Below are positions 1 to 20,677 of a DNA stretch of 64,000 bases, piece by piece. Numbering within the stretch: position 1 is the stretch's first letter; each line of letters begins with the position of its first letter. Where the stretch lies: the IMG/VR virus record IMGVR_UViG_2513237361_000012, positions 17,300-81,299 of that record, one strand, 5' to 3'. This DNA comes from a virus (taxonomy: Duplodnaviria > Heunggongvirae > Uroviricota > Caudoviricetes). Position numbers and translations under genes: made by a program. The notes beneath the pieces are model-generated. The model ran no database searches. It worked only from the letters and a program-made list of their open reading frames with translations, and was not told the DNA's origin.

Positions 1-6
1 ACCCCA

Positions 7-2338: not shown

Positions 2339-2477
2339 ACTGAAAACGGGGAAATACCCCCTTCAAAACCCCTTCAAAAACGCCACAGCATCTTCAAAAA
2401 CGTCAGAATGCACATTCACGCCATCAGAATAAAAAACGCGTTTCTGATGCGTTTCAGGGGGATTTACGGCGGGAGGG

Positions 2478-3299: not shown

Positions 3300-4805
3300 A
3301 GTCGTCCGCGTTCAGCGTTTCCTGAAGCTCAGGCAGGCGTTTCAGAAAGTCATCAAAACTGTCGCATTCCTGCGCCAGTGTCAGCACCGGGTTCGTGAAC
3401 GCCTCGCCGGTTTTCTGCCAGTCACGCAGGGCATCATCCACCATCTGTGCCAGTTCATCGGGGTGTTCCCGGTTCAGGGCGACGCGCTCGCGGTTCATCG
3501 CCACATCACCTGACATTCCGGCAGACACCGGATGCAGAACATCAGCCCCGTCGTCCGGTTCAGCCAGGCCGAACCGGTCCCGCAGCTCCGATTCCTGAAC
3601 CCGCATCCCCCGGTCAATCAGCGGCACCAGAGCATCTGTCAGCGCCTTCAGATCTTCCGCTTCACTGATACGCAGAACAACACGGGGGTAGTGTTCCTGT
3701 GGCCCGTAGTTGGCCTCGATGTAGGGCCGCACCAGATATTCATTCAGCGTGTTAGCCAGCTGCCGCGCGTCCCAGCGCACAATGTCCATGCGCACCTGAT
3801 TGTGCACGTCCGCCTGTGAACGCGAACTGCCGTTATCCGTGGTCATGGTCTGCCCCAGCACAGCCTTACTGATTTGCGCATCACACCATTCCGCCATTTC
3901 ACGGAACAGTGCGCCGCCGTTATTCCGGCTGGCGGTTTCCTTCATTTCCAGTTGCATGGACTGCGGAATGGCACACCCGGCATCCGAGGCAATGGAAGCA
4001 ATCGCATCAATCAGCACGCGGATTTGCTCCTCCGTGGCGTTGGGGCCGTATTTCCCCACCGTGACCGGAATGCCGAATTTTTCCGCAAATGCCCACCAGT
4101 CGCGCACGGTAAAGGATTTCAGCATGTACATCACCGCCACCAGACGGGCCAGACCGTTACGCAGCGGCAGACCGGATTTCAGACGCGGCTGGTGAACAAT
4201 GAATTTTCCCGGTGTCAGCGGTACGCCATCCACCGGTTCATCGTCAGTCAGCAGGCGGAACTGGCGCAGCGTGGGTTTTTCGGCTTTCAGAAAACGGGGA
4301 TCAACCCACTCATAATCACGGGGCACCCAGTGGTTGTTGCGGGTGTTCCACAAAATTTCACAGACCGCCACGCCTTTTCCCAGCCCGTCGAGCAGATCAA
4401 ACATCAGCTCAGGGATTTGCGGTGCCTCCATCAGTGCACGGATGGCGTCCGCCAGTTGCACGTCAGCATCGTCATCACTGGCGGCCACCACCACCGGTTC
4501 GATACCCGCCACCGTCAGCTTGCGGGTGCGCAGTACCGAGGCGTAATGCAAATCGCGTTCTTCCATCTCTTCAGCAAGGTAAAAAAATCACGCGTGATGC
4601 CGTCAGTAGCATTGCGCAGAATGCCTGCCAGCCTGCCGGGGTTCAGCCCGGAGGCGACGCTGATACCCGGCGAGGCCGAACGCACACCGGCATGACGCGG
4701 ACGGGCCTGTGCTTCGTTGAGCGCCTCTTTTTTCAGCGTGTCTTCCTCACCGGTTGCCGGGTTCAGCAGACGGCGAACGGCCCCGGCCAGTTGTTTCAGG
4801 TTCAC
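3235..4805 (-). pseudogene. Mu gp29-like portal protein, split by a frameshift into ORFs 4515..4805 (N-terminal 96 aa) and 3235..4566 (443 aa)
   Basis: Two overlapping ORFs in different frames; adding one base to the A7 tract at ~4581..4587 joins them into one ~520-aa reading frame. Confidence 0.55.
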
Positions 4806-6337
4806 AGTAAACCTCCCTCATTTTTCAGGCCGCGCGTCAGCTTCATCTGGCGGCGCGCGTTGCGTTCTTCCGGTTTCGCCGGGCGGTTCAGGCGGTGCAA
4901 CTCGTAACGGTGGCAGTCATCCTTGCTGGCAAGGAAGCCCAGGAAAATGGCCACAGCGGCGTCGCCGTGACGTTTGTGACCGTCGCTGCCTTTGGTTCGT
5001 GAATCATCAATGCCGGGAACGCCACGCAGTAACTGAATGGCTCCGAGGTCATTGATCACGTCTTCATGCTTCGGAAGGATCAGCTCATCATCTTCAAACG
5101 CCGCACGGAAACGGGGCATGTTTTCGCGGTAAAACGCCACGGACAGCATCACCTGTTCCACTTCATCGCCGTACCGCTCTGCCGCCTGTTCTGCCAGATA
5201 CTGACCATTCCCCCGCGCATCCATTTTGATGCCGTCACGGCGGGGCAGACGATCGCAAAGCCAGAACAGCACCTGCTCCTGCTGTTTAAACGGCACATTG
5301 CCAAGCTCAACCAGGAACGGCACCTCGCGGGTGGTGTCATCGTTCACCGTCACCGGGGCCAGTACGGTCAGGTCACCCGAACGCGCAAAGTCTTCCCCCA
5401 GACAGTGGCGCAGGTTCTTCGGGAGTTTTTCCAGTTCAGGGCGCACCACTGTTTCCAGCCATTCCCGGATATCTGCCCGGCGCTGGCTTTCCGTCAGTGC
5501 GTTAAATTCCGGTGTGCCGGTAAAGCGCAACACTTTCCCGGTGCCACGGGCCGCACGTTCACGCAGTGAGCGGGGGATATACGTGCCGCCGCCGTTTTTC
5601 GGGACGCAGTAATACTCCTCCAGCGCGTCTTCGCGGGTGGCGGTATTTCGCAGCAGGCCTTCTTTCCATTCCGCCTCGGCTTCCGGTGACCACACCATGC
5701 CGCGCACCTGACAGATACGTCGGTACAGCCCGTCATTGCAGGCGTCGTCCAGCGTGATGGTGTGAATGCTGTAATCTTTTTTGCCCGCGCGGCTTTCCTG
5801 AATAAGCTGATTAAACAGGTTGTCCACGCCGTCATGGGTGGAAATAAGGCGAATTTTGCCGCCCCATGTTTTCAGCGGCAGCACCGCCTTCAGCAGCTCG
5901 TCCAGTTTTTCATGGAACGCGGCCTCGTCGATGGTGACATTCCCCTGCATCCCGCGAATGTTGCTCGGGTTGCTGGACAGTGCCTTGACCTTAAAACCGC
6001 TGGCGAAGTACACGACGAACGTCAGAATGTCCTTGTCTTCGTCGGTGATCACTTCCTCGCAGATTTCTTCCGCTGCCGCATTAAACGCTTTCGCCCACAT
6101 CGCCACGGCGTCGATAAATTCGCGGGCCATCTCCTTATTCGAACCGATATAAAAGTGATCGCGCCCGCCGTCTTCCTTCTTCAGCGATGCCGTCAGTGCC
6201 GCATCTGCCGCCTCCGCCCAGGTTAAACCGGTACGGCGGGATTTCTCGGCGATTTTCAGGTCGGCATCATCCGCCACCCAGCGTTTCTGATACGGCAGCA
6301 GAACATCATATTCACTGAACGTGTCCATTTGTGTCAT
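4802..6337 (-). CDS. terminase large subunit (Mu gp28-like)
   Basis: 511-aa ORF between small-terminase-like and portal genes; terminase-like sequence character. Confidence 0.8.
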   Translation of the reverse strand: MTQMDTFSEYDVLLPYQKRWVADDADLKIAEKSRRTGLTWAEAADAALTASLKKEDGGRDHFYIGSNKEMAREFIDAVAMWAKAFNAAAEEICEEVITDEDKDILTFVVYFASGFKVKALSSNPSNIRGMQGNVTIDEAAFHEKLDELLKAVLPLKTWGGKIRLISTHDGVDNLFNQLIQESRAGKKDYSIHTITLDDACNDGLYRRICQVRGMVWSPEAEAEWKEGLLRNTATREDALEEYYCVPKNGGGTYIPRSLRERAARGTGKVLRFTGTPEFNALTESQRRADIREWLETVVRPELEKLPKNLRHCLGEDFARSGDLTVLAPVTVNDDTTREVPFLVELGNVPFKQQEQVLFWLCDRLPRRDGIKMDARGNGQYLAEQAAERYGDEVEQVMLSVAFYRENMPRFRAAFEDDELILPKHEDVINDLGAIQLLRGVPGIDDSRTKGSDGHKRHGDAAVAIFLGFLASKDDCHRYELHRLNRPAKPEERNARRQMKLTRGLKNEGGLL

Positions 6338-6936
6338 GCGCTAATCCCCAGAATTTCACGTTTGATGGTGTCAGCCGCACCGCCCGACAGACCGCCCGTT
6401 CTGACCAGCTCTTCGGTTTTCTCTGCCATCTCCTGCGCAAACGCATCGCGGATCGCTTTCTCGCGTTTATGGCTGGTCATGGCTGCCACTTCCAGACGCT
6501 GGGCAACCAGCGCCAGTTGGCCCAGCGCCTTCGGTGCAACAGGTTTGTCGTCTTCTGCCATCGACATGGACGTTTCAAAGGCCAGCGTTTTTACAAACTC
6601 CATCAGCAGCTTGCCGACGTCTGATGTTGGCGCGGAACCCAGCTTTGCCGCCCAGACTTCGGCCATTTCGCGGGAGGCACGGATTTTTGCCCCGACTTTT
6701 TCCATGCGGATGGCGTAGCGGTTTAAGCCCGTCCGGCTTAACTGCATCTCTTCCGGCAGGTTATGTTCGTCAATCAGGGCATTGATGGCTTCGCGGATTT
6801 CTTCCTGCGTGTGCCGCTTTTCCCGCAGCATCTGATGCAACTGCTCCCGGATGCTGTCCGGGAGTAAATCCACTTTGGAAAGACGGCCACGGGTGGGGCG
6901 TTGTTCATTTTCCATGTGTGCGCTCCTGTTGCTCAC
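6334..6936 (-). CDS. Mu gp27-like protein (putative terminase small subunit)
   Basis: 200-aa ORF immediately upstream of and overlapping the large terminase gene. Confidence 0.55.
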   Translation of the reverse strand: MSNRSAHMENEQRPTRGRLSKVDLLPDSIREQLHQMLREKRHTQEEIREAINALIDEHNLPEEMQLSRTGLNRYAIRMEKVGAKIRASREMAEVWAAKLGSAPTSDVGKLLMEFVKTLAFETSMSMAEDDKPVAPKALGQLALVAQRLEVAAMTSHKREKAIRDAFAQEMAEKTEELVRTGGLSGGAADTIKREILGISA

Positions 6937-7051
6937 TACGCTGTAAACTTTCGTATGCAGATTTCAGTGCGCCGTTCTGGATTTCCCGCCATGTCGGTTG
7001 TGCGCCAGACGGCGGAGTTCATCACGGGACGCTTTACTTATCGGATTCTTT

Positions 7052-7351
7052 TTACGGTTCACGACGGCCCCCGTCTTCAGTTCCCGGTGTTTTCAGACCG
7101 GCGTATATTTCTTCGCGAACGGAGCGGATATCCTTACCCAGCAGCTTCCACAGCCGCGCACATGCCGGTGATGAACGCAGGGCACGTTTCATGGGGGTAT
7201 CCGGTGCATCCGGGTTCCAGGGCTTTCCGGTCTGTTGTTCATATGCACGGGCGATGGCGTTTTTCTCAATATCCGCGAGCACAAGACAGTACGCCAGCTG
7301 CCGCACGACGGCCCGTTCTCCGCGACTTAACGGCTTCAGTTTTCGGGCCAT
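7052..7351 (-). CDS. hypothetical phage protein
   Basis: 99-aa ORF in operon context; no motif recognised. Confidence 0.35.
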   Translation of the reverse strand: MARKLKPLSRGERAVVRQLAYCLVLADIEKNAIARAYEQQTGKPWNPDAPDTPMKRALRSSPACARLWKLLGKDIRSVREEIYAGLKTPGTEDGGRREP

Positions 7352-7353
7352 GC

Positions 7354-7647
7354 TCAGTCCCTCGCACGGGGTTTTTTAACGCCCGGAACGCTGGACAGGC
7401 CGTTTGCCACATCCTCGCCGCTGCCGGTGATTTCAGCCACGTAACAGCCGCCCACATCAGACAGACGAACCAGCCCCTGCTCGCGCAGCCATGCAAGCTG
7501 GGTGCGCACCACATCACGGGATACCTTATGACCGTAGGCCTGAAGGCAGGTCTGCAACACGGATTCATTCGCGCTGTCGCCACAATCCAGCAGGGAACGC
7601 AGCAACACCAGACGACGGTCTTCAGTGAGGATCTCTTTCATCGCCAT
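7354..7647 (-). CDS. hypothetical phage protein (possible DNA-binding)
   Basis: 97-aa ORF, tightly packed with neighbours. Confidence 0.35.
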   Translation of the reverse strand: MAMKEILTEDRRLVLLRSLLDCGDSANESVLQTCLQAYGHKVSRDVVRTQLAWLREQGLVRLSDVGGCYVAEITGSGEDVANGLSSVPGVKKPRARD

Positions 7648-7952
7648 TAATTTTTTTCCTTTAACTCGTTCTCTAATAACAAATCGCTGATGCGGGATAC
7701 CTGGCGGATGGATGGCCCCAGCTCTTTGATTTCTCCCCGCAGGTTGCTGATATCCAGTTGCAGGCGGTGGAACTCATCACGATCAGGTAGCTGATGTACC
7801 TGGCTTTCCATCACCGACACGCGGGAACGCAGCAAATCAAACTCTTCGCGCTTGACGTAGGTCTTTGCCAGAATCAACTGAAGCAGGTTTATTCCTGTCA
7901 TCAGCAATGCCCACAGAATGGGCCAGTTGGCTCTGATCATTTCCCAGGACAC
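7647..7952 (-). CDS. phage membrane protein with coiled coil (possible spanin-like)
   Basis: N-terminal hydrophobic segment followed by a predicted coiled coil; located in the lysis-proximal cluster. Confidence 0.35.
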   Translation of the reverse strand: MSWEMIRANWPILWALLMTGINLLQLILAKTYVKREEFDLLRSRVSVMESQVHQLPDRDEFHRLQLDISNLRGEIKELGPSIRQVSRISDLLLENELKEKN

Positions 7953-8164
7953 GTTTTCCTCCTGCGTTCCCGCATCTGCTGACAGTCAATACAGGTCACC
8001 ACATCCGGCAGCGCCGCAAGGCGCTGTGCCGGAATAACGTTCCCGCAGTCATTGCAGAAGCCCCGGCTGTGGGGCGTTTCTTTTGTCCGTGTCTGCCAGG
8101 CTTTAACGACGCTCTGACGCTCGTTCAGAACCACTTCACTGATGCGATCGATTTCGTCGGTCAT
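7937..8164 (-). CDS. TraR/DksA-family C4 zinc-finger protein
   Basis: CNDCG...CIDCQ four-cysteine motif in a 75-aa protein. Confidence 0.6.
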   Translation of the reverse strand: MTDEIDRISEVVLNERQSVVKAWQTRTKETPHSRGFCNDCGNVIPAQRLAALPDVVTCIDCQQMRERRRKTCPGK

Positions 8165-8919
8165 TTCGGCCCCGCAGACATTTTGTGACGGCTTGATTTG
8201 CTGTAACGGGCAAAGCCGTCAAGGGTTCTTACACCGAGATAGCCCAGCGCCGGGGTAAGCAACATCAGCGTGATATCCCAGTCCGGTGATGGCATATGCA
8301 GCGTGATACCTCTGGCACCGGCAATGGCTCCGGCAATCTGGCCGCAGGAGAGCAACAGCACATAGGCCAGACTGCTGTAACAGGAAAGGCGGGCCAGCAG
8401 CGGGCGTGTCTGGCGCACATAGCTGTCCGTGGCGTTGTCACCATTGCGGATGGTTTCCTGCTGTTCGTGGTGTGCGGCCTGCTGGTCAGCCAGCACTAGC
8501 TTCTGCCGTTCCACCTCCAGCTGTTGCAACTGAATTTTCAGGGTTTCCATCTGCATCAGTTGCTCCGGTGACAGCATCACCAGTTTTTGTTCCAGAATGC
8601 GTTGCTGTTCAGCCACCGGCAGGCTTTCCCGGACACTTTCCACCATACCGGCCACCGAGTCAGCGGCGGCAGATGTGCTGCCACCAAACCAGCGCCCGAC
8701 GGAACGAATCAGCCCCGGCCCGGCTTTCAGCAGAACAGAGGCGATGCCTGAAAGGGTTAACGGATCCACGGGAAACCTCCATACAGATAACGCTGAAGAC
8801 AGAGCAGACCGCCGCAACTGCCACCGCACAGCCAGAACACCGGATGCACCGGTGACATCATCATCAGCGTGCTGAAGACGCAGCAGAAATATCCCAGCGC
8901 CCAGACCACCCATGACCAC
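8161..8919 (-). CDS. hypothetical phage protein (start uncertain; overlaps neighbour)
   Basis: 252-aa ORF with central coiled coil and C-terminal hydrophobic stretch; overlaps ORF 8757..9353, so true boundaries are unclear. Confidence 0.3.
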   Translation of the reverse strand: MVMGGLGAGIFLLRLQHADDDVTGASGVLAVRWQLRRSALSSALSVWRFPVDPLTLSGIASVLLKAGPGLIRSVGRWFGGSTSAAADSVAGMVESVRESLPVAEQQRILEQKLVMLSPEQLMQMETLKIQLQQLEVERQKLVLADQQAAHHEQQETIRNGDNATDSYVRQTRPLLARLSCYSSLAYVLLLSCGQIAGAIAGARGITLHMPSPDWDITLMLLTPALGYLGVRTLDGFARYSKSSRHKMSAGPK

Positions 8920-9353
8920 ACGATGATGTGGCGACCAAAAGCCCGGTAACGGACCTCAGGCAGCAGGCGAAATGGCACATTCCCGAGGCTTGCGCTGTAT
9001 GAAAACAACACCACCCCGGCAAAGGACAACAACATCAGCACGAACGATCGCCAGCCACATAACATGCTGATGATGAACATGCAGAGTGTCAGTCCGGCCA
9101 GTGGCCACGGCGTTCTCATCAGTCGGGAACAAAGCAGCCAGTCACACAGTTTTAAAATTTTGTTCATTACCTTTTTCCACATTGAATTTTTCCCTGTACT
9201 TCTGGCACTGCCAGAAAATGTCCCGTGTATCCACGGAGTTCCAGCCACGCATGTAGTAGCTGGCGTGTGTGCCATCATGGCCGGTATAGTCCAGCGGTTT
9301 CGGGGGCGGGCCTCCGGCCATGCGGTGCAGAACCTCCTGACGCAGGCGGTCAC
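8757..9353 (-). CDS. phage integral membrane protein (start uncertain)
   Basis: Multiple hydrophobic helices; lies directly downstream of the endolysin gene. Confidence 0.3.
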   Translation of the reverse strand: MTACVRRFCTAWPEARPRNRWTIPAMMAHTPATTCVAGTPWIHGTFSGSARSTGKNSMWKKVMNKILKLCDWLLCSRLMRTPWPLAGLTLCMFIISMLCGWRSFVLMLLSFAGVVLFSYSASLGNVPFRLLPEVRYRAFGRHIIVWSWVVWALGYFCCVFSTLMMMSPVHPVFWLCGGSCGGLLCLQRYLYGGFPWIR

Positions 9354-9394
9354 GCCGCCCGGTTTTCAGTGAGGCATCCCAGCCTTTGCCCATA

Positions 9395-9991
9395 TCACCC
9401 CCGCGTGGCGGACATGATGCCCAGAGGGGTATCGATGATTTCCAGACAGGCGTCGGTCAGTTTTTCCATGCGGTTAAACCAGCCGTTCAGGTATTTGCCC
9501 TGGGCGGGTTTTGATTTGATGATGTCGGCATAAAAGCGGGAACGACGGACAATGCAGCGGGCCAGCAGCCAGTCCGGGGAGGACAGGCTCACGGCCTTGC
9601 GGGTACGCGGGCCGATGATGCCGTCAGCATCCACATCAGCGGCTTCCTGCAAAATCCTGATGGCTTTTTTAACGCCATGCTGAACCGCCGCATCGAACAC
9701 AAACATCGCCACGCCATCAGGCCACTGGTCACATCCGGCAGGCAGCCAGTAATCGCGCCAGTAAATCTGCGCAACCTGTTCGCGGGTTAAATCCTTAATG
9801 CGGGTATCCGGTTTGCCGTCACCGTTGACATCGGTTTTGCCGTCAATCACACCGTCGCGGCGGTCAGAAATGCCGTATTTGGTTTCACCGCCGCTGTCTG
9901 TGGGGTCATTGACATAGCCGCCTTCAATATCAGGACGCAGAATAAAATTCAGCGCATGTTCAAAGGCCGGGGAGAATTTTTGATTTTCCAT
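9395..9991 (-). CDS. endolysin, GH108-type lysozyme with peptidoglycan-binding domain
   Basis: N-terminal EGGY..D..GG.TKYGI motif typical of glycoside hydrolase family 108, followed by a PG-binding-like C-terminus. Confidence 0.7.
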   Translation of the reverse strand: MENQKFSPAFEHALNFILRPDIEGGYVNDPTDSGGETKYGISDRRDGVIDGKTDVNGDGKPDTRIKDLTREQVAQIYWRDYWLPAGCDQWPDGVAMFVFDAAVQHGVKKAIRILQEAADVDADGIIGPRTRKAVSLSSPDWLLARCIVRRSRFYADIIKSKPAQGKYLNGWFNRMEKLTDACLEIIDTPLGIMSATRG

Positions 9992-10046
9992 AAAAGCACC
10001 TGTGAAGCAGATTTAAACGTGGTCTGCTTCATGGTGCCGGAGGCAT

Positions 10047-10070
10047 AAAAAAAGCCGGATTTACCGGCTT
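10047..10070 (-). terminator. rho-independent terminator-like hairpin downstream of mor
   Basis: Same GCCGGATTTACCGGC hairpin plus T-run as at 2314..2338. Confidence 0.5.
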
Positions 10071-10076
10071 CATTGA

Positions 10077-10526
10077 TTAAGGGCGTCGTGGCGGACGACG
10101 AACGGGATGAGGCAGATTCGGGGAGTGGTAAAACAAATCCGGCTGGTATTTATTACGCTCCAGACGTCGCATCCGTTTGATGGCCTTGTAGACAGTTTTA
10201 TATGTCACTCCGTAACGCTGAACCAGTTCAGGAATATTATGGCCGTTAAAATCACGCCAGATACGCATATCCCGGACAAGATTCTCCAGAATATTCCCCC
10301 TCGGAACATAAACCTGCATCCCGCCGATATGGCGACAAATCGCCACAACCAGCTCAAGGGAATGGGCAGGGTCTGCGCCAATCCGGGCCAGCTCTTTACG
10401 CAGCAGTGCGTTCAGTTCAGAAAGTAACGCCGGATAAGCGGTGTTTTCCTGATAATCATGAAGGTATTCCAGAACGCTGTCGTCCCGGAGGTCTTCGAAT
10501 AAATCCTGCTCTTTCATCTGTTTCAT
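10077..10526 (-). CDS. mor: Mor/C-family transcriptional activator
   Basis: 149-aa protein with Mor/C-like C-terminal HTH region (YGVTYKTVYKAI); positioned after gemA as in Mu. Confidence 0.75.
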   Translation of the reverse strand: MKQMKEQDLFEDLRDDSVLEYLHDYQENTAYPALLSELNALLRKELARIGADPAHSLELVVAICRHIGGMQVYVPRGNILENLVRDMRIWRDFNGHNIPELVQRYGVTYKTVYKAIKRMRRLERNKYQPDLFYHSPNLPHPVRRPPRRP

Positions 10527-11074
10527 ACAGCAATTCTCCCGCTGTTTCGTGCGCGGGCATATGCACTGGTCATTGCATCATAGCCGCGCAGTTCCCGCCC
10601 GGTTTCGCTCACAGGTAAAGGCACACCATGTCGGACAAAGGCTTCCCGGATGCAGCGCATATGCCACTGTTTGAGCGTTTCGAGCACAACATGCAACGAT
10701 TCCCCGTGACACCAGGCCAGCGTGGAAACACCCTGACCACCATTACGTCTGGCCGTCAGGCGTTCAACGTATTTGTCCAGCGCGGCGTCGCTGATATCGG
10801 AGACGAAACCATCAAGAAACATCTGCTGCCAGATTTTATAAATCTTCTCGCGCGGTGTGACATGCTCCTTAAAGCGACGGCGGGGATGTTTTTTCTGCTT
10901 CTTAAAACCGCGCTCTTTCATGGCATCGAGCACCTGTTCCAGTTGTGCGACAGTCAGTTCGCGGCAACTGGTCTTGCCTGTGCACTGCACCAGAAAGGCG
11001 CGGTAAGTGTCATCGTCGAGTTGTAGATCACGACGGGCAACATGAATTAACTTAATAAGCGATGTGCGACTCAT
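10523..11074 (-). CDS. gemA: GemA (Mu gp16)-like protein
   Basis: Start taken at MSRTSLIK (aa 53 of the track ORF); DUF1018/GemA-like sequence; position before mor. Confidence 0.65.
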   Translation of the reverse strand: MSRTSLIKLIHVARRDLQLDDDTYRAFLVQCTGKTSCRELTVAQLEQVLDAMKERGFKKQKKHPRRRFKEHVTPREKIYKIWQQMFLDGFVSDISDAALDKYVERLTARRNGGQGVSTLAWCHGESLHVVLETLKQWHMRCIREAFVRHGVPLPVSETGRELRGYDAMTSAYARARNSGRIAV

Positions 11075-11104
11075 TTTGTCACCTCTCATATTAAGGAATG
11101 AGAT

Positions 11105-11509
11105 ATGAAAATTGATTACGATGAACTGGCAAGAATCCTTGATACTTTCCTGAATGCAGACAGCGCATTTATTACCCTTAAGGATGTTGGAATCGACACA
11201 ACCGACGATGAAGATAAACTGATATTTCATTTATTACTGCTCGTCGAAAATGGTCTTATCGGTAACAGAGAACTGCAAACTGGCACCCCGGAGTGCATCG
11301 GTCTGAAGTTCACCACAACAGGTATTGGCTGGCGAAACGTACCAATAAGGCTGACTCAGGACGGACATGATTTTGCCAATGCATTGCATCAAAAACCTAT
11401 TCTTGAACGAATCAAAAAAGAATTTGCCGAAGCCCCGTTTGATGTTGTCAAAGACCTCGGCAAGGGGTTTTTAACTCAGTTATTTAAAAAGAAACTCGGT
11501 ATTGAATAA
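11105..11509 (+). CDS. hypothetical protein on the opposite strand within the Mu early region
   Basis: 134-aa ORF with RBS AAGGAA upstream; opposite orientation to the whole early operon. Confidence 0.45.
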   Translation: MKIDYDELARILDTFLNADSAFITLKDVGIDTTDDEDKLIFHLLLLVENGLIGNRELQTGTPECIGLKFTTTGIGWRNVPIRLTQDGHDFANALHQKPILERIKKEFAEAPFDVVKDLGKGFLTQLFKKKLGIE

Positions 11510-11815
11510 CTCCTTACTCATTCGCTGTAGCACATCAAGGGCGGCAACTGCCGCCACTTTATCCTGACCGGCAATGATTTTTCGTAATTCCTCAATAATC
11601 CAGGCATGGCTTAATGATTCAGCAATCATCGTGCGTTTTTCTGAAATTAAATTTTCTCTGGCCTGCTCATAGTGCTGGTATACAACATTATCCAGAAAAT
11701 AATTTACATCTTGTTCTGACATGCCACTGGAAATTAAGGTTGCAGCCATTAAATCAGCATCAGTAATCATCTGTATTTTCATTTCGTAATACCTCTTCGC
11801 AATAAAAGACTTCAT
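11480..11815 (-). CDS. hypothetical Mu semi-essential-region protein
   Basis: 111-aa ORF in early operon. Confidence 0.35.
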   Translation of the reverse strand: MKSFIAKRYYEMKIQMITDADLMAATLISSGMSEQDVNYFLDNVVYQHYEQARENLISEKRTMIAESLSHAWIIEELRKIIAGQDKVAAVAALDVLQRMSKELFNTEFLFK

Positions 11816-11949
11816 TGGGATAACGTTTTTGTATGCGCTCCATCACCTGCATACATGCCTGCTCTGTGGGCCAGATTTTTTCCGTTACCGGAATGGCATC
11901 GCAGGCATCATTCCCACAAGTGCCAACCAGCAGGACAAAGCCAATTGAC

Positions 11950-12489
11950 TTAATCATGCTCGCTGATTTCCTGTGTTTCCGCCGGAACCGGTGAATAATC
12001 AAGAATGAGATAGCGCAGGACGTGGTCGGTGATATTCCAGCCACTGGAACCACAAATAAAGCGCCCCAGCCGGATATCGATATACGCCATCACAAAACGG
12101 GGCATCCCCTGTTTGCACATCTCGTCATCCACTTCAGCAACGATGTAAACCGACTCGCAGGTCAGTACGCCTGTCGCAAATTCTTTTGCCAGTGCCGGAA
12201 TGGCATTGCCTTCCAGCCAGGGCAAAGAGCGGCGGAACGCGCACCATTGAGCATCATCAACAGCGGGGTGCTCCGTTGCGTTTCGTCTTACAGGAGGCGT
12301 CGGACGAGGGCGCGGAACGTCATAAAATCCGTTGCATTCAGTGAGAACTCCGGCATCAACCGCATCACGCAGGAAATACACCATTGAGGAAGGTGGCATC
12401 TTCATTTTTTCAGCCAGAACGCCACAGGTCAGACGCCCGTAACCCCGTAGTAATGTGCTGACACCGTTCAGAATTTTTGCATCAATCAT
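11950..12489 (-). CDS. hypothetical Mu semi-essential-region protein
   Basis: 179-aa ORF in early operon. Confidence 0.35.
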   Translation of the reverse strand: MIDAKILNGVSTLLRGYGRLTCGVLAEKMKMPPSSMVYFLRDAVDAGVLTECNGFYDVPRPRPTPPVRRNATEHPAVDDAQWCAFRRSLPWLEGNAIPALAKEFATGVLTCESVYIVAEVDDEMCKQGMPRFVMAYIDIRLGRFICGSSGWNITDHVLRYLILDYSPVPAETQEISEHD

Positions 12490-12586
12490 TTTTATTTCTC
12501 AGATATCAGATTCAGGCGCGAGCAATCCCCTGACGCATCGCGCCATAATTAAAAGAAAGTGAATTAATTAAATATTCGTGGTGGTA

Positions 12587-13111
12587 TTAAATACCGGCTT
12601 CCTGTTCAAACGGAATAATAGAAAAATCTTCAATACCTGATTTGACTGTAATTCCGGCAACACCTGCGACCGCTTTCGGTTCCAGTAAAATCGCTTCCTT
12701 GTTGATTTCCTGTTTCGTGCGAATAAAGCGTTGCAGGCCAAGACGCTCCAGCGTTTCCATCACCGCATCCACACCGCGAATACTTACCGATGGTGGGCGC
12801 TGACGCCATGACACATCACCGGTTACCAGGTTTGCCGTCTTCACCTTGCCGCCGTTCGTCAGTTCGTCACGGTTCGCTTCACACCACCCCTGAACGCCTT
12901 TTGAAAGGGTTTCAATACTGGTTTTAAGGGGTGCAATCTGTGAGGCGTATTTCTCCGTAATCTCAGCGATAGCGTCATTCATCTCCGTTTCAAGCCGTGC
13001 CGCTTCGCGTTGCAGGTCACCAATCCGGCGAATATCACATACCACGGCATCGCGGGATTGTGGAACATAAGCCGCTGCGGCGTTCTTGATTCGTTTTGCT
13101 GGTTTAGCCAT
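12587..13111 (-). CDS. gam: host-nuclease inhibitor Gam (Mu-type)
   Basis: 174-aa protein; size, position and sequence character match Mu Gam. Confidence 0.75.
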   Translation of the reverse strand: MAKPAKRIKNAAAAYVPQSRDAVVCDIRRIGDLQREAARLETEMNDAIAEITEKYASQIAPLKTSIETLSKGVQGWCEANRDELTNGGKVKTANLVTGDVSWRQRPPSVSIRGVDAVMETLERLGLQRFIRTKQEINKEAILLEPKAVAGVAGITVKSGIEDFSIIPFEQEAGI

Positions 13112-13131
13112 ATAAATAAAGCTCCTGTTAA

Positions 13132-13431
13132 TTAATATTCGCTGTATACAATGCTGGATACAGCACGATTGCTTAATTCCATCTTTTGGGCTATCACATG
13201 AATAGCCACCCCTTCTTTATAAAGTTCACGACACAAATATTTGTCGTGCTCACTGACCCGGTATGCACACAACGATATTCCGTGCCTTCTGGCATGTGCC
13301 TGTAGGGCGGTTGGGGCAACGTTCAGTTTTTTCGCCATTTCCTCGACGGTCATTTTTCCGACACTGGCTTCGATAAATTCCCGGTCTTCGCGTGACCAGC
13401 GTTTACGCTTACACATCATTCCGGTCACCAC
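13132..13431 (-). CDS. hypothetical HTH-containing protein
   Basis: 99-aa ORF with HTH-like segments. Confidence 0.35.
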   Translation of the reverse strand: MVTGMMCKRKRWSREDREFIEASVGKMTVEEMAKKLNVAPTALQAHARRHGISLCAYRVSEHDKYLCRELYKEGVAIHVIAQKMELSNRAVSSIVYSEY

Positions 13432-13851
13432 TCAGTACAACAGGGGTTCGCGCAGTGATGCCGGAATATGCCGCAGCGATAACTGAACCGCTTTCAAGGC
13501 AAGGGAAGAATACGTCCCCTGCGTCCAGCCTTTCGCCATTTGCCGGTAATCGCGCCAGATGTTCTGCCACTGCTCCCGTGCGTCCGGGTCTGACGCGCTG
13601 ATGTATTCGCGGTCCATGACGTATTCCCATAAATCCTCGTTAAACGCACCGCCAAACGTGATGGCATTAGAGATGTTTTCACCACAATAACGCGCACAAA
13701 TGCTGTAATGGTCAAATGTAATCAGATAAGTAGTTTCACCATGCTCATAAACTTTGCGGGTGAAAATAAACTCGCGTAATTCACCACCGTTGTTATTGCG
13801 TTCCTGAATTCGGATTAATGCCTGAATTTCATTTCGGATTTTGACGTTCAT
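13432..13851 (-). CDS. hypothetical protein
   Basis: 139-aa ORF in early operon. Confidence 0.35.
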   Translation of the reverse strand: MNVKIRNEIQALIRIQERNNNGGELREFIFTRKVYEHGETTYLITFDHYSICARYCGENISNAITFGGAFNEDLWEYVMDREYISASDPDAREQWQNIWRDYRQMAKGWTQGTYSSLALKAVQLSLRHIPASLREPLLY

Positions 13852-13871
13852 TGTCAGCGTTCCTTTGTGAA

Positions 13872-14141
13872 TTAATGTCTGGCTGCATTCGGGTTATAGC
13901 TGAATAATTCCCCCTCGGCTTCCAGCCCAAGCTCCTTGGCTGATTTCAACAACTCCTCGGTCGCTTTTTTAATGATTTCAGGAGCCATGCTCTTGATGAT
14001 GCCTGCCATTACATCATGTGGCCCGGTCTGGTCCTCAGGTGAGGATTCTTCCAGTCGCACATTCATATTTACGGCAAAACCTCCATTTTCCTGAAACTCA
14101 ATATTTCTTGTATTGTTAAATTCAAAGATTACTTTTGCCAT
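13872..14141 (-). CDS. hypothetical protein
   Basis: 89-aa ORF in early operon. Confidence 0.3.
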   Translation of the reverse strand: MAKVIFEFNNTRNIEFQENGGFAVNMNVRLEESSPEDQTGPHDVMAGIIKSMAPEIIKKATEELLKSAKELGLEAEGELFSYNPNAARH

Positions 14142-14152
14142 TTTGTTTCACC

Positions 14153-14407
14153 TTATTGATTCTGAATAATTGTGCTGACCTTTACCTTCGCGCCTTCTAC
14201 CTGTTTAAAGAAAACACCACTGCACCACGGGCAACATGTGAAAGAGTCCCATACTTCATTTTCGGGGGAACTTTGCGTCATAAGCTGTTCACCACATCCC
14301 GGGCATTTATATGTCGTCAAAGGCACTCCGTGGCGCTGACAATGTTTAACCCACTCAATATATTTTCCAGACCTGATACTCATCGTTATCTCCAGATAAT
14401 CTGACAA
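14153..14407 (-). CDS. zinc-ribbon protein
   Basis: CPGCG...CCPWC cysteine motifs. Confidence 0.35.
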
Positions 14408-14613
14408 CCATTAAGACGGGCCGTCCATACTGAACGGGCAACCCCTGATTTATGCTCCATAATCCTGACAGCGTTTCTGACCAGCTCCGGTGGCGGGCAG
14501 GTGATTTCAAGTACCGGGCGGGCCACGCCCAGCCAGGATTCGTTGACGTGGCTGCCGCGCTCCTGTAACCAGGTCTTTACTTCCGTCGCCATTTTGATAT
14601 TACGAGACATCAT
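14386..14613 (-). CDS. kil: Kil-like protein
   Basis: 75-aa ORF directly downstream of B, the position and size of Mu kil. Confidence 0.45.
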
Positions 14614-14625
14614 GGTTTGTGTTCC

Positions 14626-15579
14626 TTACTGCCAGTTCAGTAACTTAGGGTTGCTGTAAGCCTCCTTAAAAGCCGCTTTAATGTGACTTTTATTCAGGGA
14701 TGAACCAGCACCTTTCGCCGCCAGCCACGCATGATTCAGTGTGTGAGTTAATACACGCAATCCCCCGGGCTTTTCGGCTACCCTCATCAACAGATCCAGC
14801 TCATCTTCCTGTGTTACTCCCCATGCTTTGGCTACAGCCATCACGTCGGTTTTTTTCACTTTGCGCAGTTGTTTCGTCATGGCAAAACGGCTGAACAGAC
14901 GGGCCAGCTCATCAGTCCCACGACGGGTGGCATCCGCCATCTGTTTCGGGTTGCCAATTAAAACCATCCCCACGCCAGTGGCATCCTGAATGGCGCGTAA
15001 TTGCTCCAGACCATCCACACTTAAGTGATCAGCTTCATCAATAATCAGCAGGGGGTTAACACGGCCACTAATTTCTTTACCACCGCCCAGTTTTCTGCGA
15101 ATGGCGCGGGTTATATTCCCCTTATTTCTTCCCGGATTATTAATTTCCAGCGCATATGCTATTTCAAGGAGACATTCCGTAACGCTCGAATGTGCCGGAG
15201 CAAGCGTCACCATCCAGGCATTAGCTGTTTTGCGGCAATATTCCCGTGCAGCAAAAGTTTTGCCGACACCCGGTACGCCAACAACAACACTGATAATCCC
15301 GAGTGAGCGCACTGTTTTAAACAGCTCATGCAAATCACAAAATGTCTGGGTCTTCACAACGCCGGGGGCACCTGACAAATTCTGCCCTTTTTGCCAGACC
15401 CGATACCATTCCTGTAATTTGTCATGCATGCCTTCAACATTGCCTCTGTACTTTCCTTTACGAAGATCAGAAAGTGTTGCCGGAGACATTCCGGCCTCAT
15501 CAGCAATATCTTCCTGGGACTTGTCGCCCTCGTTAATCAAAGCGTTAATAGTGTTGAAAACATCATCAATATCAGTCAT
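14626..15579 (-). CDS. B: MuB-like transposition ATPase
   Basis: N-terminal HTH, Walker A GVPGVGKT, Walker B LLIIDEAD; follows the transposase gene. Confidence 0.85.
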   Translation of the reverse strand: MTDIDDVFNTINALINEGDKSQEDIADEAGMSPATLSDLRKGKYRGNVEGMHDKLQEWYRVWQKGQNLSGAPGVVKTQTFCDLHELFKTVRSLGIISVVVGVPGVGKTFAAREYCRKTANAWMVTLAPAHSSVTECLLEIAYALEINNPGRNKGNITRAIRRKLGGGKEISGRVNPLLIIDEADHLSVDGLEQLRAIQDATGVGMVLIGNPKQMADATRRGTDELARLFSRFAMTKQLRKVKKTDVMAVAKAWGVTQEDELDLLMRVAEKPGGLRVLTHTLNHAWLAAKGAGSSLNKSHIKAAFKEAYSNPKLLNWQ

Positions 15580-15654
15580 AGTATCTCCTCCATCATTACA
15601 GATTTACTTTATTTTCCTTGTTTAACAGTCCGTTACCGCGGACTGTTTTTTTAT

Positions 15655-17742
15655 TCAGGCCAGCGGATCATCTTCTTCCTGCATGGCAAAAAGCTTTTGC
15701 ATCCCCAGTCTGAAATCGCGTTCAAATTCTTCGTCATGCTCTTCTTCATATTCCGGTTGCTGAACTGCCACCACATTCCCAACCGGGCGATAAACATTAT
15801 CCAGCCAGGGTTCAGCTTGTTTGTGTTCCAGAATCTGAATACCTTCATCTTCAGCATCACGAATTTTTTCCTCAGCGCGTTTGCGCATTCCTTTAATACG
15901 CTGTTGCTGTTTGTGATATTCCGCACTGACAGGGAAGGCTGCGCGTTTATTGCCGTTCCATATCGCCTCACAGATAAAGCTGCCGTCCTTGCGACGTACC
16001 GTAATTCGCTCGGCGTCATGAATGTCATAACTGATAAGCACTTTGCGACCGTGTTCGTCACGCAACTCCGGCGCGTAGTAAATATTGTTCAGCCACTGGA
16101 TTTCGCAGCGTCTTACTGGACGCTCCACCATCGGGCGGAACATGTCGCGCAGCTCAAGATCACTCAGCCACTCAATTTCGGTGTCTTCTTCTGCCAGGCG
16201 TTTTTTTCTGAACTCTGCCGGGCTGTAATGCCGCCCGTTCGGTTTCATCGGCAGCTCAGAATGCGGGCGGTTGTTGTACCATTCCACGCCTTCACGAATA
16301 GCCTCAATAAGCTCCGCCCACGATGGCAGCTCGCGCATTGCAGCTTTCTGGCGGTCGTTCAGAGGCTTGTCCTGTTGCAGGGCGTTAAACGCTGAACGCA
16401 GATCACGGTTAAGTACACGCAACGATTCCCGGTCAGCACCCTTGCCAAAATAGGTGCGATACCTCCTGGCTATACGCATCGGCAGTGTCCGGTTCAGGCG
16501 TTCAATAATGCCGCGCCCCTGTGGATTACCGGCAATACCTGTTGGGTGTTTAATCCCCAGGCGGGGCAGAATACCCACGACCTCTTTGTCCAGCATGTCA
16601 GCCGTTTCACCAGAACCGTTATCCGAGTAATACAGAAACGGTTTTCCGTGGTTGCGAATGCCGTGCTGTATCGCACCGGCAACGGCGAACACGTTCTCGG
16701 CAAGGTCAAGACTCCAGCCAACAACAAACCGGGTTCCACCGTCGATCACAAATGTGACTTCCGGTGAGAATGGACGCCCGTGGATCGGATGTGCACATTT
16801 CAGCTTCATACCGTGACCGTCACCAATCCAGACATAATTCACCGGCATAGCTGTCCAGTCGCGGCGGGTGAATCCTTCAAGCTGACGGTATTCACTGCCG
16901 GTAACGCGCCCTTTTTGTTTCACCACTTCCGGCAATTTCTTCATGGCATAACGAACCACATCGTAAGAGGGCATCACCTCCAGCATGTACGGTTCGTCCG
17001 CATGGCGACACTGCCATTCCGCGACAAAATCCTCGTAGGCTTCAGACATAGGTCTGCCGTTCACCTGGCGATACTGCGCCAGAAACTCAGGTAGCCAGCT
17101 AATTTGTTCCGGTTTTATTTCGTCGCGTTTTCCTGGTGCCAGTAACAGCAGCCGTTCTGCGGCGTTCTGTGACTGGTTGTACTTCAGCACCCACTGATAA
17201 AGTGGGTCACGACTGATGGTGCGATTAGCGCCACGTTTTGCATTGGCGTTAACTGCGGCCTGTTGCAGGCGTTCCGGTAGTTCACCTTTACGGGCTTTTT
17301 CGACAAGAAAGTTAATGGCTTTCAGTCGCCCGAGATCACCCTCGCTTTCCAGCTTCAGCACTTCCACTACCAGCGCAGCTCTTGCTTCAGATACCCGACG
17401 CTGATTTTCGGTCAGCGCATTCAGGCGTTCTTCCATCAGTTGTGGCGAACCGCGATATGCTTCGATTGCCTGGACAGCATCAGGATTGCGCGCCTTCCTG
17501 GTAACGACCTGAACTTCGGAAACGTTGTTCTCCGTAGCTACCAGTTGTTCCACATAACGTTCACGCAGCGCCTTTTGAGTCGCTTCCGGCAGACAATCAA
17601 TGTGGTACTCAATGGCTTTTGTACCTGCTCGTTTGCGTCGAAAATGCTCTGATGAAGCCAATTTTTTTATAGTGTACCTCACACCTTGCGCACTTCCCGG
17701 CATACCAGGCAGCCCCACGAGTTCGTTGACAGACACAAACAT
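15655..17742 (-). CDS. A: MuA-like DDE transposase
   Basis: 695-aa protein with MuA-like N-terminal DNA-binding region and DDE core; position between ner and B. Confidence 0.9.
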   Translation of the reverse strand: MFVSVNELVGLPGMPGSAQGVRYTIKKLASSEHFRRKRAGTKAIEYHIDCLPEATQKALRERYVEQLVATENNVSEVQVVTRKARNPDAVQAIEAYRGSPQLMEERLNALTENQRRVSEARAALVVEVLKLESEGDLGRLKAINFLVEKARKGELPERLQQAAVNANAKRGANRTISRDPLYQWVLKYNQSQNAAERLLLLAPGKRDEIKPEQISWLPEFLAQYRQVNGRPMSEAYEDFVAEWQCRHADEPYMLEVMPSYDVVRYAMKKLPEVVKQKGRVTGSEYRQLEGFTRRDWTAMPVNYVWIGDGHGMKLKCAHPIHGRPFSPEVTFVIDGGTRFVVGWSLDLAENVFAVAGAIQHGIRNHGKPFLYYSDNGSGETADMLDKEVVGILPRLGIKHPTGIAGNPQGRGIIERLNRTLPMRIARRYRTYFGKGADRESLRVLNRDLRSAFNALQQDKPLNDRQKAAMRELPSWAELIEAIREGVEWYNNRPHSELPMKPNGRHYSPAEFRKKRLAEEDTEIEWLSDLELRDMFRPMVERPVRRCEIQWLNNIYYAPELRDEHGRKVLISYDIHDAERITVRRKDGSFICEAIWNGNKRAAFPVSAEYHKQQQRIKGMRKRAEEKIRDAEDEGIQILEHKQAEPWLDNVYRPVGNVVAVQQPEYEEEHDEEFERDFRLGMQKLFAMQEEDDPLA

Positions 17743-17744
17743 TT

Positions 17745-18017
17745 TTACGCCACCTTACGAACGTAGCGGCTGGGCCAGATCTCCTCCGGAGCCACACCGA
17801 TAGCATCAGCAATAATGCGCTCATACTTAGGGCATTTGCGGTACAAGGCATTCTTTAAAGAATCCTTGTTTAAACCTGCTTCAACTGATAGTGAACGCAA
17901 AGTAAAGCCTTTCACATGCACCGCAGCGACAACATGTGCCGGGTGCCAGTCCTGTTTTACAACTTCATTTATAGACATCATTCGTTTATCCTTAAAAGTT
18001 ATCTGCGCGGATAACAC
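17745..18017 (-). CDS. ner: Ner-like DNA-binding regulator
   Basis: 90-aa Ner-family HTH protein immediately upstream of A. Confidence 0.75.
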   Translation of the reverse strand: MLSAQITFKDKRMMSINEVVKQDWHPAHVVAAVHVKGFTLRSLSVEAGLNKDSLKNALYRKCPKYERIIADAIGVAPEEIWPSRYVRKVA

Positions 18018-18121
18018 CGCCGGATAATCTCTACAGATAAATATTTGATCACTACAAAAGAAAAGTAAAGGGCTTTAATCTCTTTCTTTGGTGATTTTTA
18101 TCTACATAAGGATAAATACTT

Positions 18122-18709
18122 ATGAATCATACAGTTAAGAGAAAAGAAAAAAACGATAAAAAAGAAAGTGATTTTTCTTTTCCAGCATTTCAAAAAGAAA
18201 GCATCAAGGAACGACTGGCAAAGTTAATGCGTGGTCGGTCTAAAACCGCAGTTGCGAAAGCGTGGGGGCTTCCATTCTCTACACTTAATAACTATTTTGA
18301 GAAAGATGCGATACCATCTCTACAAGTAGCTAGCCAGATAGCTTTTGCAGAAGGAGTAAGTATTGATTGGCTTGTTTTTGGTAAGGTAGAGGCAGAGTCG
18401 TTACATCCTCAAACAGATAACAACGCCCAGAACCAACCACTCGATATCACACAACAACGCCTCCTGGCTATTCTGAGTGCCCTGGAATCACCGGAGGCTG
18501 AGCGGTTGTCCAAACTCCTGGCACTAAATGGAGCCAAATACTTGTCGCGCTTACTGGAACCTGAGAACCAAGAGTTGATCCAATTAGAAGGGCGAAAACG
18601 AGCAGCGGCACTACTTCTAGATAATCTATCTGATGATAGAGTTAGAGAGATTTTGGCAGAAATTGAAGCTAGTAATCTCTCGCACAGTTTAAAAGCGAAG
18701 GCAGGTTGA
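18122..18709 (+). CDS. c: Mu-type c repressor
   Basis: 195-aa protein divergent from ner, with HTH segment (KTAVAKAWGLPFSTLNNY); operator region between c and ner. Confidence 0.7.
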   Translation: MNHTVKRKEKNDKKESDFSFPAFQKESIKERLAKLMRGRSKTAVAKAWGLPFSTLNNYFEKDAIPSLQVASQIAFAEGVSIDWLVFGKVEAESLHPQTDNNAQNQPLDITQQRLLAILSALESPEAERLSKLLALNGAKYLSRLLEPENQELIQLEGRKRAAALLLDNLSDDRVREILAEIEASNLSHSLKAKAG

Positions 18710-18953
18710 CTTCATTGGCCTGCCTTTAGAGCTTCTTTAAAATCAAATTTAGAGCCAATACTGATGTTTTGAAGGGCTTTCAAACTATCGAAAGGTACGG
18801 CGCGCCTATCTTGAATATGTTGTCGATTGTGGCGCATTGAACTTTTTTTGATGCCTCCTATCTTGAATCTAATAGACATCTAACTTATTGAATCCCATCA
18901 AATCCCGCCTTTTCTAATCTCTTCCCGGTTATCTTGAATAAATTACCTAGTCA
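18710..18953. repeat. Mu-like left end (attL) with repeated transposase-binding-like motifs
   Basis: Reverse complement reads TG...ACCGGGA(A/G)G...CGGGAT.TGATGGGATT, closely resembling my recollection of the Mu left end; ATCTTGAAT recurs three times. Confidence 0.55.
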
Positions 18954-19472
18954 TATATCGCCAATAGAATCATGTAACTCTTTTTGCACTTGCGGAATCA
19001 GTTCGTCAGAGAGATTTAACCCAAACTTGAAGAAGATATCGTCGATATTGTCAAAGTTATCGACATATTCCAGGCGATGATAGTACATCTCCGCCACGGC
19101 CTTCATTTCGGCGTCATACTTTTTCAGGGTATAGGCGCTATTTTTTCCACAGGCAATAATTTCCACCTCCGGGCGCGTCAGTAAATGCTCCACAATAGTG
19201 GAAAATGCGTCCTTCGACAGTTCGCCATTAAAAACATCTTTGCCTTCGTTCACCACCCAGCCGCCGTTTTCCGCCACAAAGGCAATTTCATTGGCAATTT
19301 CGGGAAAGAACGAAATTAACTGATAATATTGATTTCCACTGGCGACCACAAAGCGAATACCTTGTGCTTTCATCTGCTGATACTGGGCCATAAACCGCTC
19401 ACGGTTATAGGTTTTTTGATCGCTTAAGAAAGTACCGTCCATATCTACCGCAATTAATTTAATGCCCATCAA
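18951..19472 (-). pseudogene. ybjI: ybjI 5' fragment (HAD-family phosphatase), truncated by the Mu-like insertion
   Basis: N-terminal 173 aa with DxDGT HAD motif (VDMDGTF); ORF ends in a TGA formed at the prophage terminus, C-terminal ~100 aa missing. Confidence 0.75.
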
Positions 19473-20677
19473 CTATTCTCCATCGCAGTTTGCGTTTTTG
19501 TATCGGGTTTGGCGACGGCTTTAGCGACAATAGCCGCAAGAATAACCAGCGCCAGCACAACCAGCATTGCACTACGTAATCCATAATGTTCTCCGAGATA
19601 GCCCAGCAGTGGCGGCCCGACGAGGAATGCCAGATAACCCGTCGTTGCCACTACGCTGACACGGGTCGGCGCATCGGGGCCGGTATCGCTGGCGGCAGAA
19701 ATGGTTAGTGGGAAGCCCAGAGAAGCGCCCAATCCCCAAAGCACAACAGACACCCCAGCGACCCATGCGCTATCGACAAAAATAATTAGTCCGATACCCA
19801 ACGCACCCATCAAGGCACTGGCACGTACTACGGCAACGCGGCTGTAACGGTCGATGAACCAGCCACCGGTGAAGCGTCCAACGGTCATCCCCAATGTGAA
19901 ACCGGCATAAATCAGTGAGCCTGACGTTGGACTAAAACCGTGGCCATCAACCATTAATAAGGGTAACCAATCGTTGGCAGAGCCTTCTGCAAAAGCCATT
20001 GCCAGTACTACGACACCAATCAACAGCAACTGGATGTCACGGTAAAAAGGCACACCTTTTTCGTCATGCTGCGAGCCATCGGCAGCGTTTTTGCCCGTAC
20101 CACCAGGGATTGCCTTAATAGCAATATAAATAGGTGCGATGCCCGCCAGTGCCGCCAACAAAATATGTACAGTTGCCGGAACACCAAAGGCTGTCAACGC
20201 CATCCCGACACCAGCGCCTGCCAGCGTGCCCAGGCTATAAAAGCCGTGCATCATAGGCAAAACCGTTTTATTCATTTCTCGCTCAACGGCTGCGCCTTCA
20301 ACGTTTATCGCCACTTCAGCGGAACCAAAACTGGCTCCAAAGACACCAAGACCAACGGCAAAGAGGACGGGGGATGTCAGCCAGAGCGCCAGACTTAATA
20401 TCATCATCCCGATCAAAGCGCAGGACATAGTGACCAGAATGACATTACGCGTCCCAAAGCGTTTCACTAACCACGCCGAGCAGAGGATACCGCTCATCGA
20501 ACCTATCGACAGGCCAAAGAGTACACCGCCCATTTCAGCGATAGAGACAGAGAGAATATCCCGAATTGCTGGCGTGCGGGTGGCCCAGGAAGCCATTAGC
20601 AGTCCTGGCAAAAAGAAGAACATAAACAACGCCCAGGTACGGCGTTTCAAGGCATTACGTGAAGAATTTACTGTCAT
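19469..20677 (-). CDS. ybjJ: MFS transporter YbjJ
   Basis: 402-aa protein with ~12 hydrophobic helices; conserved position between ybjI and rcdA. Confidence 0.8.

Follow-up and report, generated by a model that had tools for sequence, protein, structure and literature searches.

The stretch of DNA analysed here (the window, 64 kb) is part of contig AEME01000001.1 (4.81 Mb; assembly GCA_000208565.2) of Escherichia sp. TW09308, and in an index of 153 billion genes the sequence of the truncated YbjI that it encodes has an exact match on this contig only. Within the window, 2.4 kb of host genes form an island among parts of three different prophages. Similarity of about 89% to the E. coli chromosome covers positions 18955-21328, with the remnant of ybjI, ybjJ and rcdA, and breaks off sharply at the low-coordinate side. 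There the left 18,955 bp of a Mu-like transposable prophage begin, as judged from gene content and a computed length of 35,948 bp for the whole element (window 1..18955, minus strand). [quoted passage not shown] A 327-aa DUF4917 protein is encoded between rcdA and this integrase (21538-22521, minus strand). Its match to the PADLOC candidate defence family PDC-S21 has an E value of 9e-122, that to SIR2-like models is weak, and the gene is probably defence cargo of the P2-like prophage. The last part of the window (54000-64000) is a partial lambdoid prophage with genes for an ERF recombinase, an Ea22-like protein and a LexA-family repressor. The gene ybjL, a neighbour in E. coli, was not found anywhere in the 64-kb window.

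The E. coli YbjI protein has 271 amino acids. The copy in the window aligns with it from residue 1 and ends after Ile172, giving an open reading frame of 172 codons and a stop (18951..19469, minus strand) that was assigned by this alignment and by the Pfam family Hydrolase_3. An earlier sequence-only reading had given the frame 173 codons, which is correct when it is counted from an upstream TTG at 19472 (18951..19472), but the ATG at 19469 is homologous to the E. coli start and is the one picked by the gene caller. The host-derived part of the truncated gene is 18956-19469. Its TGA stop (18951..18953, minus strand) consists entirely of phage nucleotides, numbers 3-5 of the end 5'-TATGACTAGG, so that the proposal that the stop is formed exactly where the terminal sequence begins was right to within 2 nt. 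Codon 172 (ATA) is composed of a host A and a phage TA, by which the isoleucine is kept. Truncation of this HAD phosphatase gene by a Mu-like prophage, as originally suggested, is thus borne out, with residues 1-172 of 271 still encoded. The Hydrolase_3 match covers only profile positions 1-166 of 255. The N-terminal HAD motifs (DxD) are retained, and residues 173-271, including the GDGGND motif, are in the separated 3' fragment. From what is generally known of HAD phosphatases, the 172-aa product is presumably inactive, since it lacks the C-terminal catalytic motifs. The RefSeq annotation of the ybjI product is a 5-amino-6-(5-phospho-D-ribitylamino)uracil phosphatase of the riboflavin pathway. 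According to the gene calls the upstream neighbour ybjJ, encoding an MFS transporter, is intact (19469..20677, minus strand), and its stop codon shares 1 nt with the start of ybjI, as in E. coli.

The 3' part of ybjI is absent from the 64-kb window. A protein search with the C-terminal 99 aa of E. coli YbjI returned fragments only, and the 3' part on the source contig was not among the matches. The best fragment match (P0007) was considered as the right junction and rejected, as it came from a 1.9-kb Logan contig that has no prophage and on which ybjI is frameshifted several times. When species-representative genomes were scanned with the YbjI C-terminus, the ybjI loci of E. whittamii, Shigella and E. 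albertii were each 87-89% identical to the window. In Logan contig SRR22784967_5476 (locus L084) ybjI is split into open reading frames of 71, 45 and 98 aa without a prophage, which suggests that the gene is also lost through point mutation in some Escherichia.

Proteins unique to this genome, among them the 83-aa gp43 fragment described below, led along the contig to the right end of the prophage, which lies about 17 kb upstream of where the window begins, in a segment of the same record (3922622-3942873, referred to as L106). L106 and the window overlap by 3,051 identical bp, and both junctions are on one contig. In window coordinates the prophage spans -16992 to 18955, so that 16,993 bp (-16992..0) lie upstream of the window start. 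In L106 the genes com and mom precede the right end, which reads ...ATCTATCTTGAATAATTTTGCGCGCTTTA and is directly followed by GATATTATGGTGCCAGTCCATACC..., the 3' part of ybjI. Directly after this end, a 99-aa fragment matching Hydrolase_3 was called as a gene. The 3' fragment of 99 codons is therefore located at the other prophage end, on the same contig and 36 kb away, and the missing end, which was to be sought upstream together with the remainder of ybjI, was found with the two directly abutting.

From the left end toward the window start, the genes are arranged in the order repressor, ner, transposase A, MuB-like B, kil, gam, mor, lysis and Mu-type head genes, and Mu-type tail genes and com/mom are also present. 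This order is shared with Mu and D108 (Muvirus). The repressor of 195 aa (18122..18709, plus strand; Pfam HTH_3 and Phage_CI_repr) has a CI/HTH_3-type N-terminus; its position matches that of Mu c and its transcription points to the left end, as in Mu. It is followed by a ner-like early regulator of 78 aa (17745..17981, minus strand; Pfam HTH_35, E 9e-25), by transposase A, a Mu-family DDE enzyme of 695 aa (15655..17742, minus strand), and, directly downstream of A, by the MuB-like AAA+ transposition protein B of 317 aa (14626..15579, minus strand; Phage-MuB_C, E 2e-23, and AAA_22). Among the Pfam families of Mu-type morphogenesis, lysis and com/mom functions, Portal_Mu, Phage_Mu_F, Mu-like_gpT, Phage_Mu_Gp27/36/45/48, Mor, GemA, Gam, Com and Mom are represented. 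No integrase or recombinase gene and no invertase gene occur among the called genes of the entire 35,948-bp element. The portal gene (3235..4805, minus strand) carries a -1 frameshift near 4579, which divides it into 96 + 443 aa against 523 in relatives, and the gp43 DNA-circularisation gene (L106 8979-10252) has a 1-base deletion giving 359 + 83 aa against 424 in relatives. If these deletions are real and not sequencing errors, which is possible, the TW09308 prophage would produce no virions. The prophage ends and the A and B genes are all intact.

Transposase A was assigned on the basis of Mu-transpos_C (E 2e-18) and HTH_Tnp_Mu_1 (E 2e-9), and residues D308/D374/E414 align with the catalytic triad D269/D336/E392 of MuA. 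The identity to MuA is 23-25%, about 24%. Identity is much higher to the enzyme of the Yersinia phage vB_YpM_5 (85%), followed by Pseudomonas phage VW-6B (49%), Klebsiella phage Kp4852-3 (42%), the record of which ends in TG...CA, and D3112 A (31%, E 2e-75). The enzyme is thus nearer to D3112 A than to MuA.

The non-coding left end, the equivalent of attL, occupies 18711..18955 (minus strand) and begins 5'-TATGACTAGGTAATTTATTCAAGATAACCGGG, with its terminus at window position 18955. It contains three copies of the repeat TTCAAGATA at 18930..18938, 18859..18867 and 18807..18815 (all minus strand), of which the first is nearest to the terminus and corresponds to nucleotides 18-26 of the element. 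No further copy occurs anywhere in the 64-kb window, for which 0.6 copies are expected, and all three are within 132 bp on one strand. At the right end, three inverted copies occur in the same register, the first again at nt 18-26 from the terminus. This agreement in register between the first repeats of both ends exists only if both termini are TA. By analogy with L1-L3 and R1-R3 of Mu, the TTCAAGATA repeats are the putative transposase-binding sites. They are unlike the sites of Mu and unrelated to Mu L1. Some sub-lineages of the clade described below carry another end repeat, TTTGATAC. A 55-aa open reading frame without a family match lies within the left end (18712-18879, minus strand), extends over end repeats 2 and 3 and is unlikely to be a gene.

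Between end repeats 1 and 2 there is a spacer block (18892..18929, minus strand) in common with the left end of Mu, in which it aligns to nt 27-74. It consists of ACCGGGAAG at 18921-18929 and CGGGATTTGATGGGAT at 18892-18907 and accounts for the Mu-like blocks ACCGGGA(A/G)G and CGGGAT.TGATGGGAT. The best 40-nt stretch has 32/40 identities with Mu, compared to a maximum of 26/40 in 60 shuffles. The rest of the 245-bp left end gave no alignment with Mu. The likeness of about 240 bp to the Mu left end that was first noticed thus exists locally, in these blocks, but does not extend over the remainder, and it resides in the spacer and not in the putative transposase-binding repeats. Left ends have kept the block whichever of three repeat types they carry, and right ends lack it. 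It is thus specific for the left end and independent of transposase specificity. We consider it a candidate packaging (pac) or HU-bending region. In Mu the pac site maps to the L1-L2 spacer region, and the pac assignment of the TW09308 block depends on this position; usable coordinates of the Mu pac site were not found in the literature searched. HU also binds the L1-L2 spacer of Mu (PMC3145075).

The sequence at the left junction is ...GGCGATA|TATGACTAGG, and at the right junction it is ...GCGCGCTTTA|GATATTATGGTGCC. In phage orientation the same junctions are ...ATTGGCGATA|TATGACTAGGTAATTT... on the left and ...GCGCGCTTTA|GATATTATGGTG... on the right. The left copy of the target-site duplication is at 18956..18959 (GATA on the ybjI sense strand, TATC on the plus strand), and the right copy follows ...GCGCGCTTTA at L106 20045-20048. 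When the element and one copy of GATA are removed, an uninterrupted ybjI frame is restored that is 94% identical to E. coli YbjI over 239 aa without gaps, and at the DNA level the halves join without a base gained or lost (89% identity, no gap). The predicted intact sequence across the site is GGCGATATTATGGTGCC. This empty site was rebuilt by comparison with the allele of another species, E. coli, at 89% nucleotide identity. The element has GATAT on either side, and the phage itself begins with T. The scar in TW09308 is by itself ambiguous, and its reading as a 4-bp duplication rests on relatives. In view of the invariant TA ends and 4-bp repeats of these relatives, the T next to GATA is the first base of the phage and the duplication in TW09308 is GATA.

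The relatives comprise six complete insertions in complete E. coli genomes, which together with TW09308 form a small sample of seven. They split yhfX in STEC346 (flanking repeat ATTC), vgrG in VL40 (TTCA), sslE in FDAARGOS_943 (TGTT), mhpA in E300082 (GGCA), yihF in STEC388 (TGCG) and rlmB in TD225-C4 (GATA). All six start with TAT(G/T), finish with GCGCGCTTTA and lie within 4-bp direct repeats, so that TA...TA termini and a 4-bp repeat are found in 7/7 insertions. The terminal TA dinucleotide of the left end (18954..18955, minus strand), which is TG in Mu, is kept in all seven as well as in vB_YpM_5, and the base preceding the terminal TA varies among the insertions. Transposases within this clade go down to 54-58% identity (STEC388), still with TA termini and 4 bp. 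The empty sites predicted with a 4-bp duplication agree with intact E. coli yhfX over 399/399 bases and with intact yihF over 400/400 bases, both ungapped. For VL40 no intact vgrG site was found among the fetched loci and reading-frame logic was applied instead. In this genome (locus L107, NZ_CM177011.1, 35604-37499) vgrG is split after codon 7 and a full-length vgrG is annotated from a TTG within the phage right end (LRALFTLEVDG...); this call is possibly a chimeric frame reading out of the phage end. The TW09308-type left end adjoins unrelated host DNA in STEC346 and VL40. Ten further right ends in ten host contexts were obtained from genomes sharing gp46, and at least 16 different loci (the six split genes and these ten right-flank contexts) carry relatives with the same ends and different flanking repeats.

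As a control, the prophage of E. coli KFu019 was compared, in which the transposase is 98% identical to MuA; its ends are TG...CA, and its flanking repeat, ACCAT, has 5 bp. The late genes of this prophage (locus L111, NZ_CP091700.1) are near-identical to those of the TA-type prophages, and it has a true Mu early region and Mu ends, with a repressor annotated as MerR-type. The transposition module has here been swapped as a cassette along with both ends.

In view of the above, we propose, with a probability of about 0.93, that a 35,948-bp Mu-like phage of a clade with TA termini and 4-bp duplications inserted into codon 172 of ybjI in TW09308 by DDE transposition. Transposase A, aided by the MuB-like ATPase B, would bind the three TTCAAGATA repeats at each end, and both 3'-terminal TA ends would be joined to target positions four bases apart. 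The sequence scars are the basis for proposing that A binds TTCAAGATA, that the cut is made at the terminal TA and that the stagger is 4 bp. Gap repair would then leave the element flanked by the 4-bp duplication GATA, which is present at both junctions. The 5' fragment of ybjI reads through two phage bases, by which Ile172 is kept, and then meets the phage-borne TGA, giving the 172-aa product.

The scar could also be read as that of a canonical Mu-type insertion, in which the phage starts with ATGACT... (or TG...) and GATAT is a 5-bp duplication, the length that was initially expected. The element is indeed flanked by GATAT, identical pentamers occur on both sides in E300082 (GGCAT) and TD225-C4 (GATAT) too, and both Mu and a Mu-type relative do produce 5-bp repeats. 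However, in 7/7 insertions and in vB_YpM_5 the element invariably begins with the T that this reading assigns to the host, and in four of the seven insertions the two flanks disagree at the fifth base (T versus G, C, A and A). A 5-bp model was tested and rejected on the flank comparison and on the empty sites in yhfX and yihF, which fit the intact genes with no length difference when 4 bp are assumed. The end repeats, moreover, are in register at both ends only with TA termini. We consider a 5-bp event at ybjI improbable, and a duplication of 4 bp, GATA, replaces the expected five on the evidence of the relatives and the empty sites. The least probable of the explanations considered, with hardly any likelihood left, is site-specific integration, in which a phage integrase would have acted on an attachment site within ybjI. 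A tyrosine integrase gene does lie 3.7 kb away, at 22629-23804, but it is part of the separate P2-like prophage beyond ybjJ-rcdA, the 35.9-kb element is without an integrase, and relatives with the same ends occupy at least 16 loci with differing flanking repeats.

The gene might also have been disrupted when two Mu-like prophages underwent rearrangement with each other, or through a deletion adjacent to a prophage. A hybrid of this kind is known in E. coli 06-00048, where the left end is TA-type, the right end is Mu-type and a flanking repeat is lacking. Removal of a recombination product of that sort would not give back the exact target. In TW09308 the two ends match in type, the same 4 bp flank them and the ybjI halves rejoin exactly, which makes such a history very unlikely. 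In the 06-00048 hybrid (locus L112, NZ_CP015229.1, 1923600-1963300) the left end is TATGACCAAGTAAATTATTCAAGATA and the right end ...GCCGCTTCA; it probably arose by recombination of two different Mu-like prophages, the genome having two. That an assembler misplaced the prophage into ybjI is a concern because AEME01 is a draft assembly and Mu-like sequences can recur within a genome. This has a similarly slight chance of being true, given that both junctions are on one 4.81-Mb contig with a matching duplication and exactly complementary gene halves, features not to be expected from a misjoin. Insertion by transposition, disrupting ybjI, remains the preferred explanation because of the junctions, the restored frame, the DDE transposase with its MuB-like partner in an element without integrase, and the scattered relatives. 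On this point the sequence-only reading, which had argued for a transposition-type and against a site-specific event, is upheld.

Of the properties by which transposable phages are recognised, the element has a DDE transposase, a MuB-like activator, a short duplication, varied insertion sites and inverted end repeats. With Mu and D108 it shares a transposase of the DDE type with a MuB-type ATPase, three repeats per end, the use of many insertion sites and the left-end spacer block, and DNA of the kil region is 84-87% identical. Mu and D108 differ in having TG...CA ends, a 5-bp duplication and end repeats of their own, in place of TA...TA, 4 bp and TTCAAGATA. Other differences are that the TW09308 repressor has a CI/HTH_3-type domain, that an invertase gene is missing and that A is only distantly similar to MuA. 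Of the features of Muvirus in the strict sense (Mu, D108, SfMu), the morphogenesis, lysis and com/mom module is present in the TW09308 element, and the TG...CA termini, 5-bp duplication and MuA-type transposase and end sites are not. Ends or duplications are not reported in the paper on SfMu. With the Pseudomonas D3112/B3 group the element has its lifestyle in common, and its transposase is nearer to D3112 A than to MuA. However, phages of this group are siphoviruses with unrelated late genes and TG...CA ends. The duplication of B3 is 6 bp (PMC8705779), and for the D3112-like phage Ab30 a five-base shift between two insertion orientations was described (PMC5977238).

The closest phages are vB_YpM_5 and vB_YpM_6 of Yersinia (MT374853, MT374854), with 88% identity in early-region DNA and 85% in the transposase. 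The termini of vB_YpM_5, TATG...GCGCGCTTTA, are the same as those of TW09308. The two phages differ in having end repeats of the TTTGATAC type and in carrying a hin invertase. Since vB_YpM_5 was isolated as a plaque-forming phage (PMC10434027), the TA-type ends belong to active phages. Ends, integration sites and duplications of vB_YpM_5 and vB_YpM_6 are not reported in that paper. In the vB_YpM_5 record, ...GCGCGCTTTA is followed by 79 nt of foreign DNA and then by TATGAAGAGG..., so that the genome deposited as circular holds 79 nt of non-phage DNA between its termini (locus L113, 1655-1733, MT374853.1). This is presumably host DNA that was packaged at the left end and retained by the assembler, and it gives the only hint of replicative transposition and of packaging with host DNA at the ends.

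According to a survey of 2021, all Mu- and B3-like phages known until then had TG-CA ends, with duplications of 5 bp (Mu) or 6 bp (B3), and TA-TA ends were reported there as new in Leptospira, with 6-bp repeats (PMC8705779). These WETA1-type prophages resemble the present element in having TA at both ends instead of TG/CA, but differ in the 6-bp duplication, in a transposase of the B3/Tn552 family and in an unrelated host and gene content (PMC8705779). Whether TA-TA prophages exist in other bacteria was a question left open by that survey (PMC8705779). In the searchable literature we found no description of TA termini or of a 4-bp duplication in enterobacterial Mu-like phages, which is not in itself proof of novelty. 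The combination of TA...TA ends, own end repeats and a 4-bp duplication is a variant of the Mu paradigm that has seemingly not been described, and the novelty is modest. That an Escherichia/Yersinia clade of Mu-like phages with a divergent DDE transposase uses TA...TA ends and a 4-bp stagger, as a combination unreported in this literature, is put forward tentatively, with its chances somewhat short of even.

For the environmental strain TW09308, the insertion amounts to a knockout of ybjI at this locus that is recent and strain-specific; the gene is probably dispensable and the insertion itself is ordinary. In E. coli YigB is redundant with YbjI, and in view of this redundancy loss of ybjI is probably tolerated by the strain. 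For the annotation of prophages, boundary calling on TG...CA and 5 bp would place the ends of such elements wrong by one or two bases, and the ambiguous GATAT in TW09308 invites such misplacement. For phage biology, the clade shows that Mu-like phages can differ in their termini and target stagger, even where enterobacterial phages have the virion genes of Mu in common, and TA-TA transposable prophages outside Leptospira provide an answer to the question raised in PMC8705779. The clade offers natural transposase variants for asking what determines the stagger, and with vB_YpM_5 as a plaque-forming member the geometry of TA ends and 4-bp duplications is directly testable.
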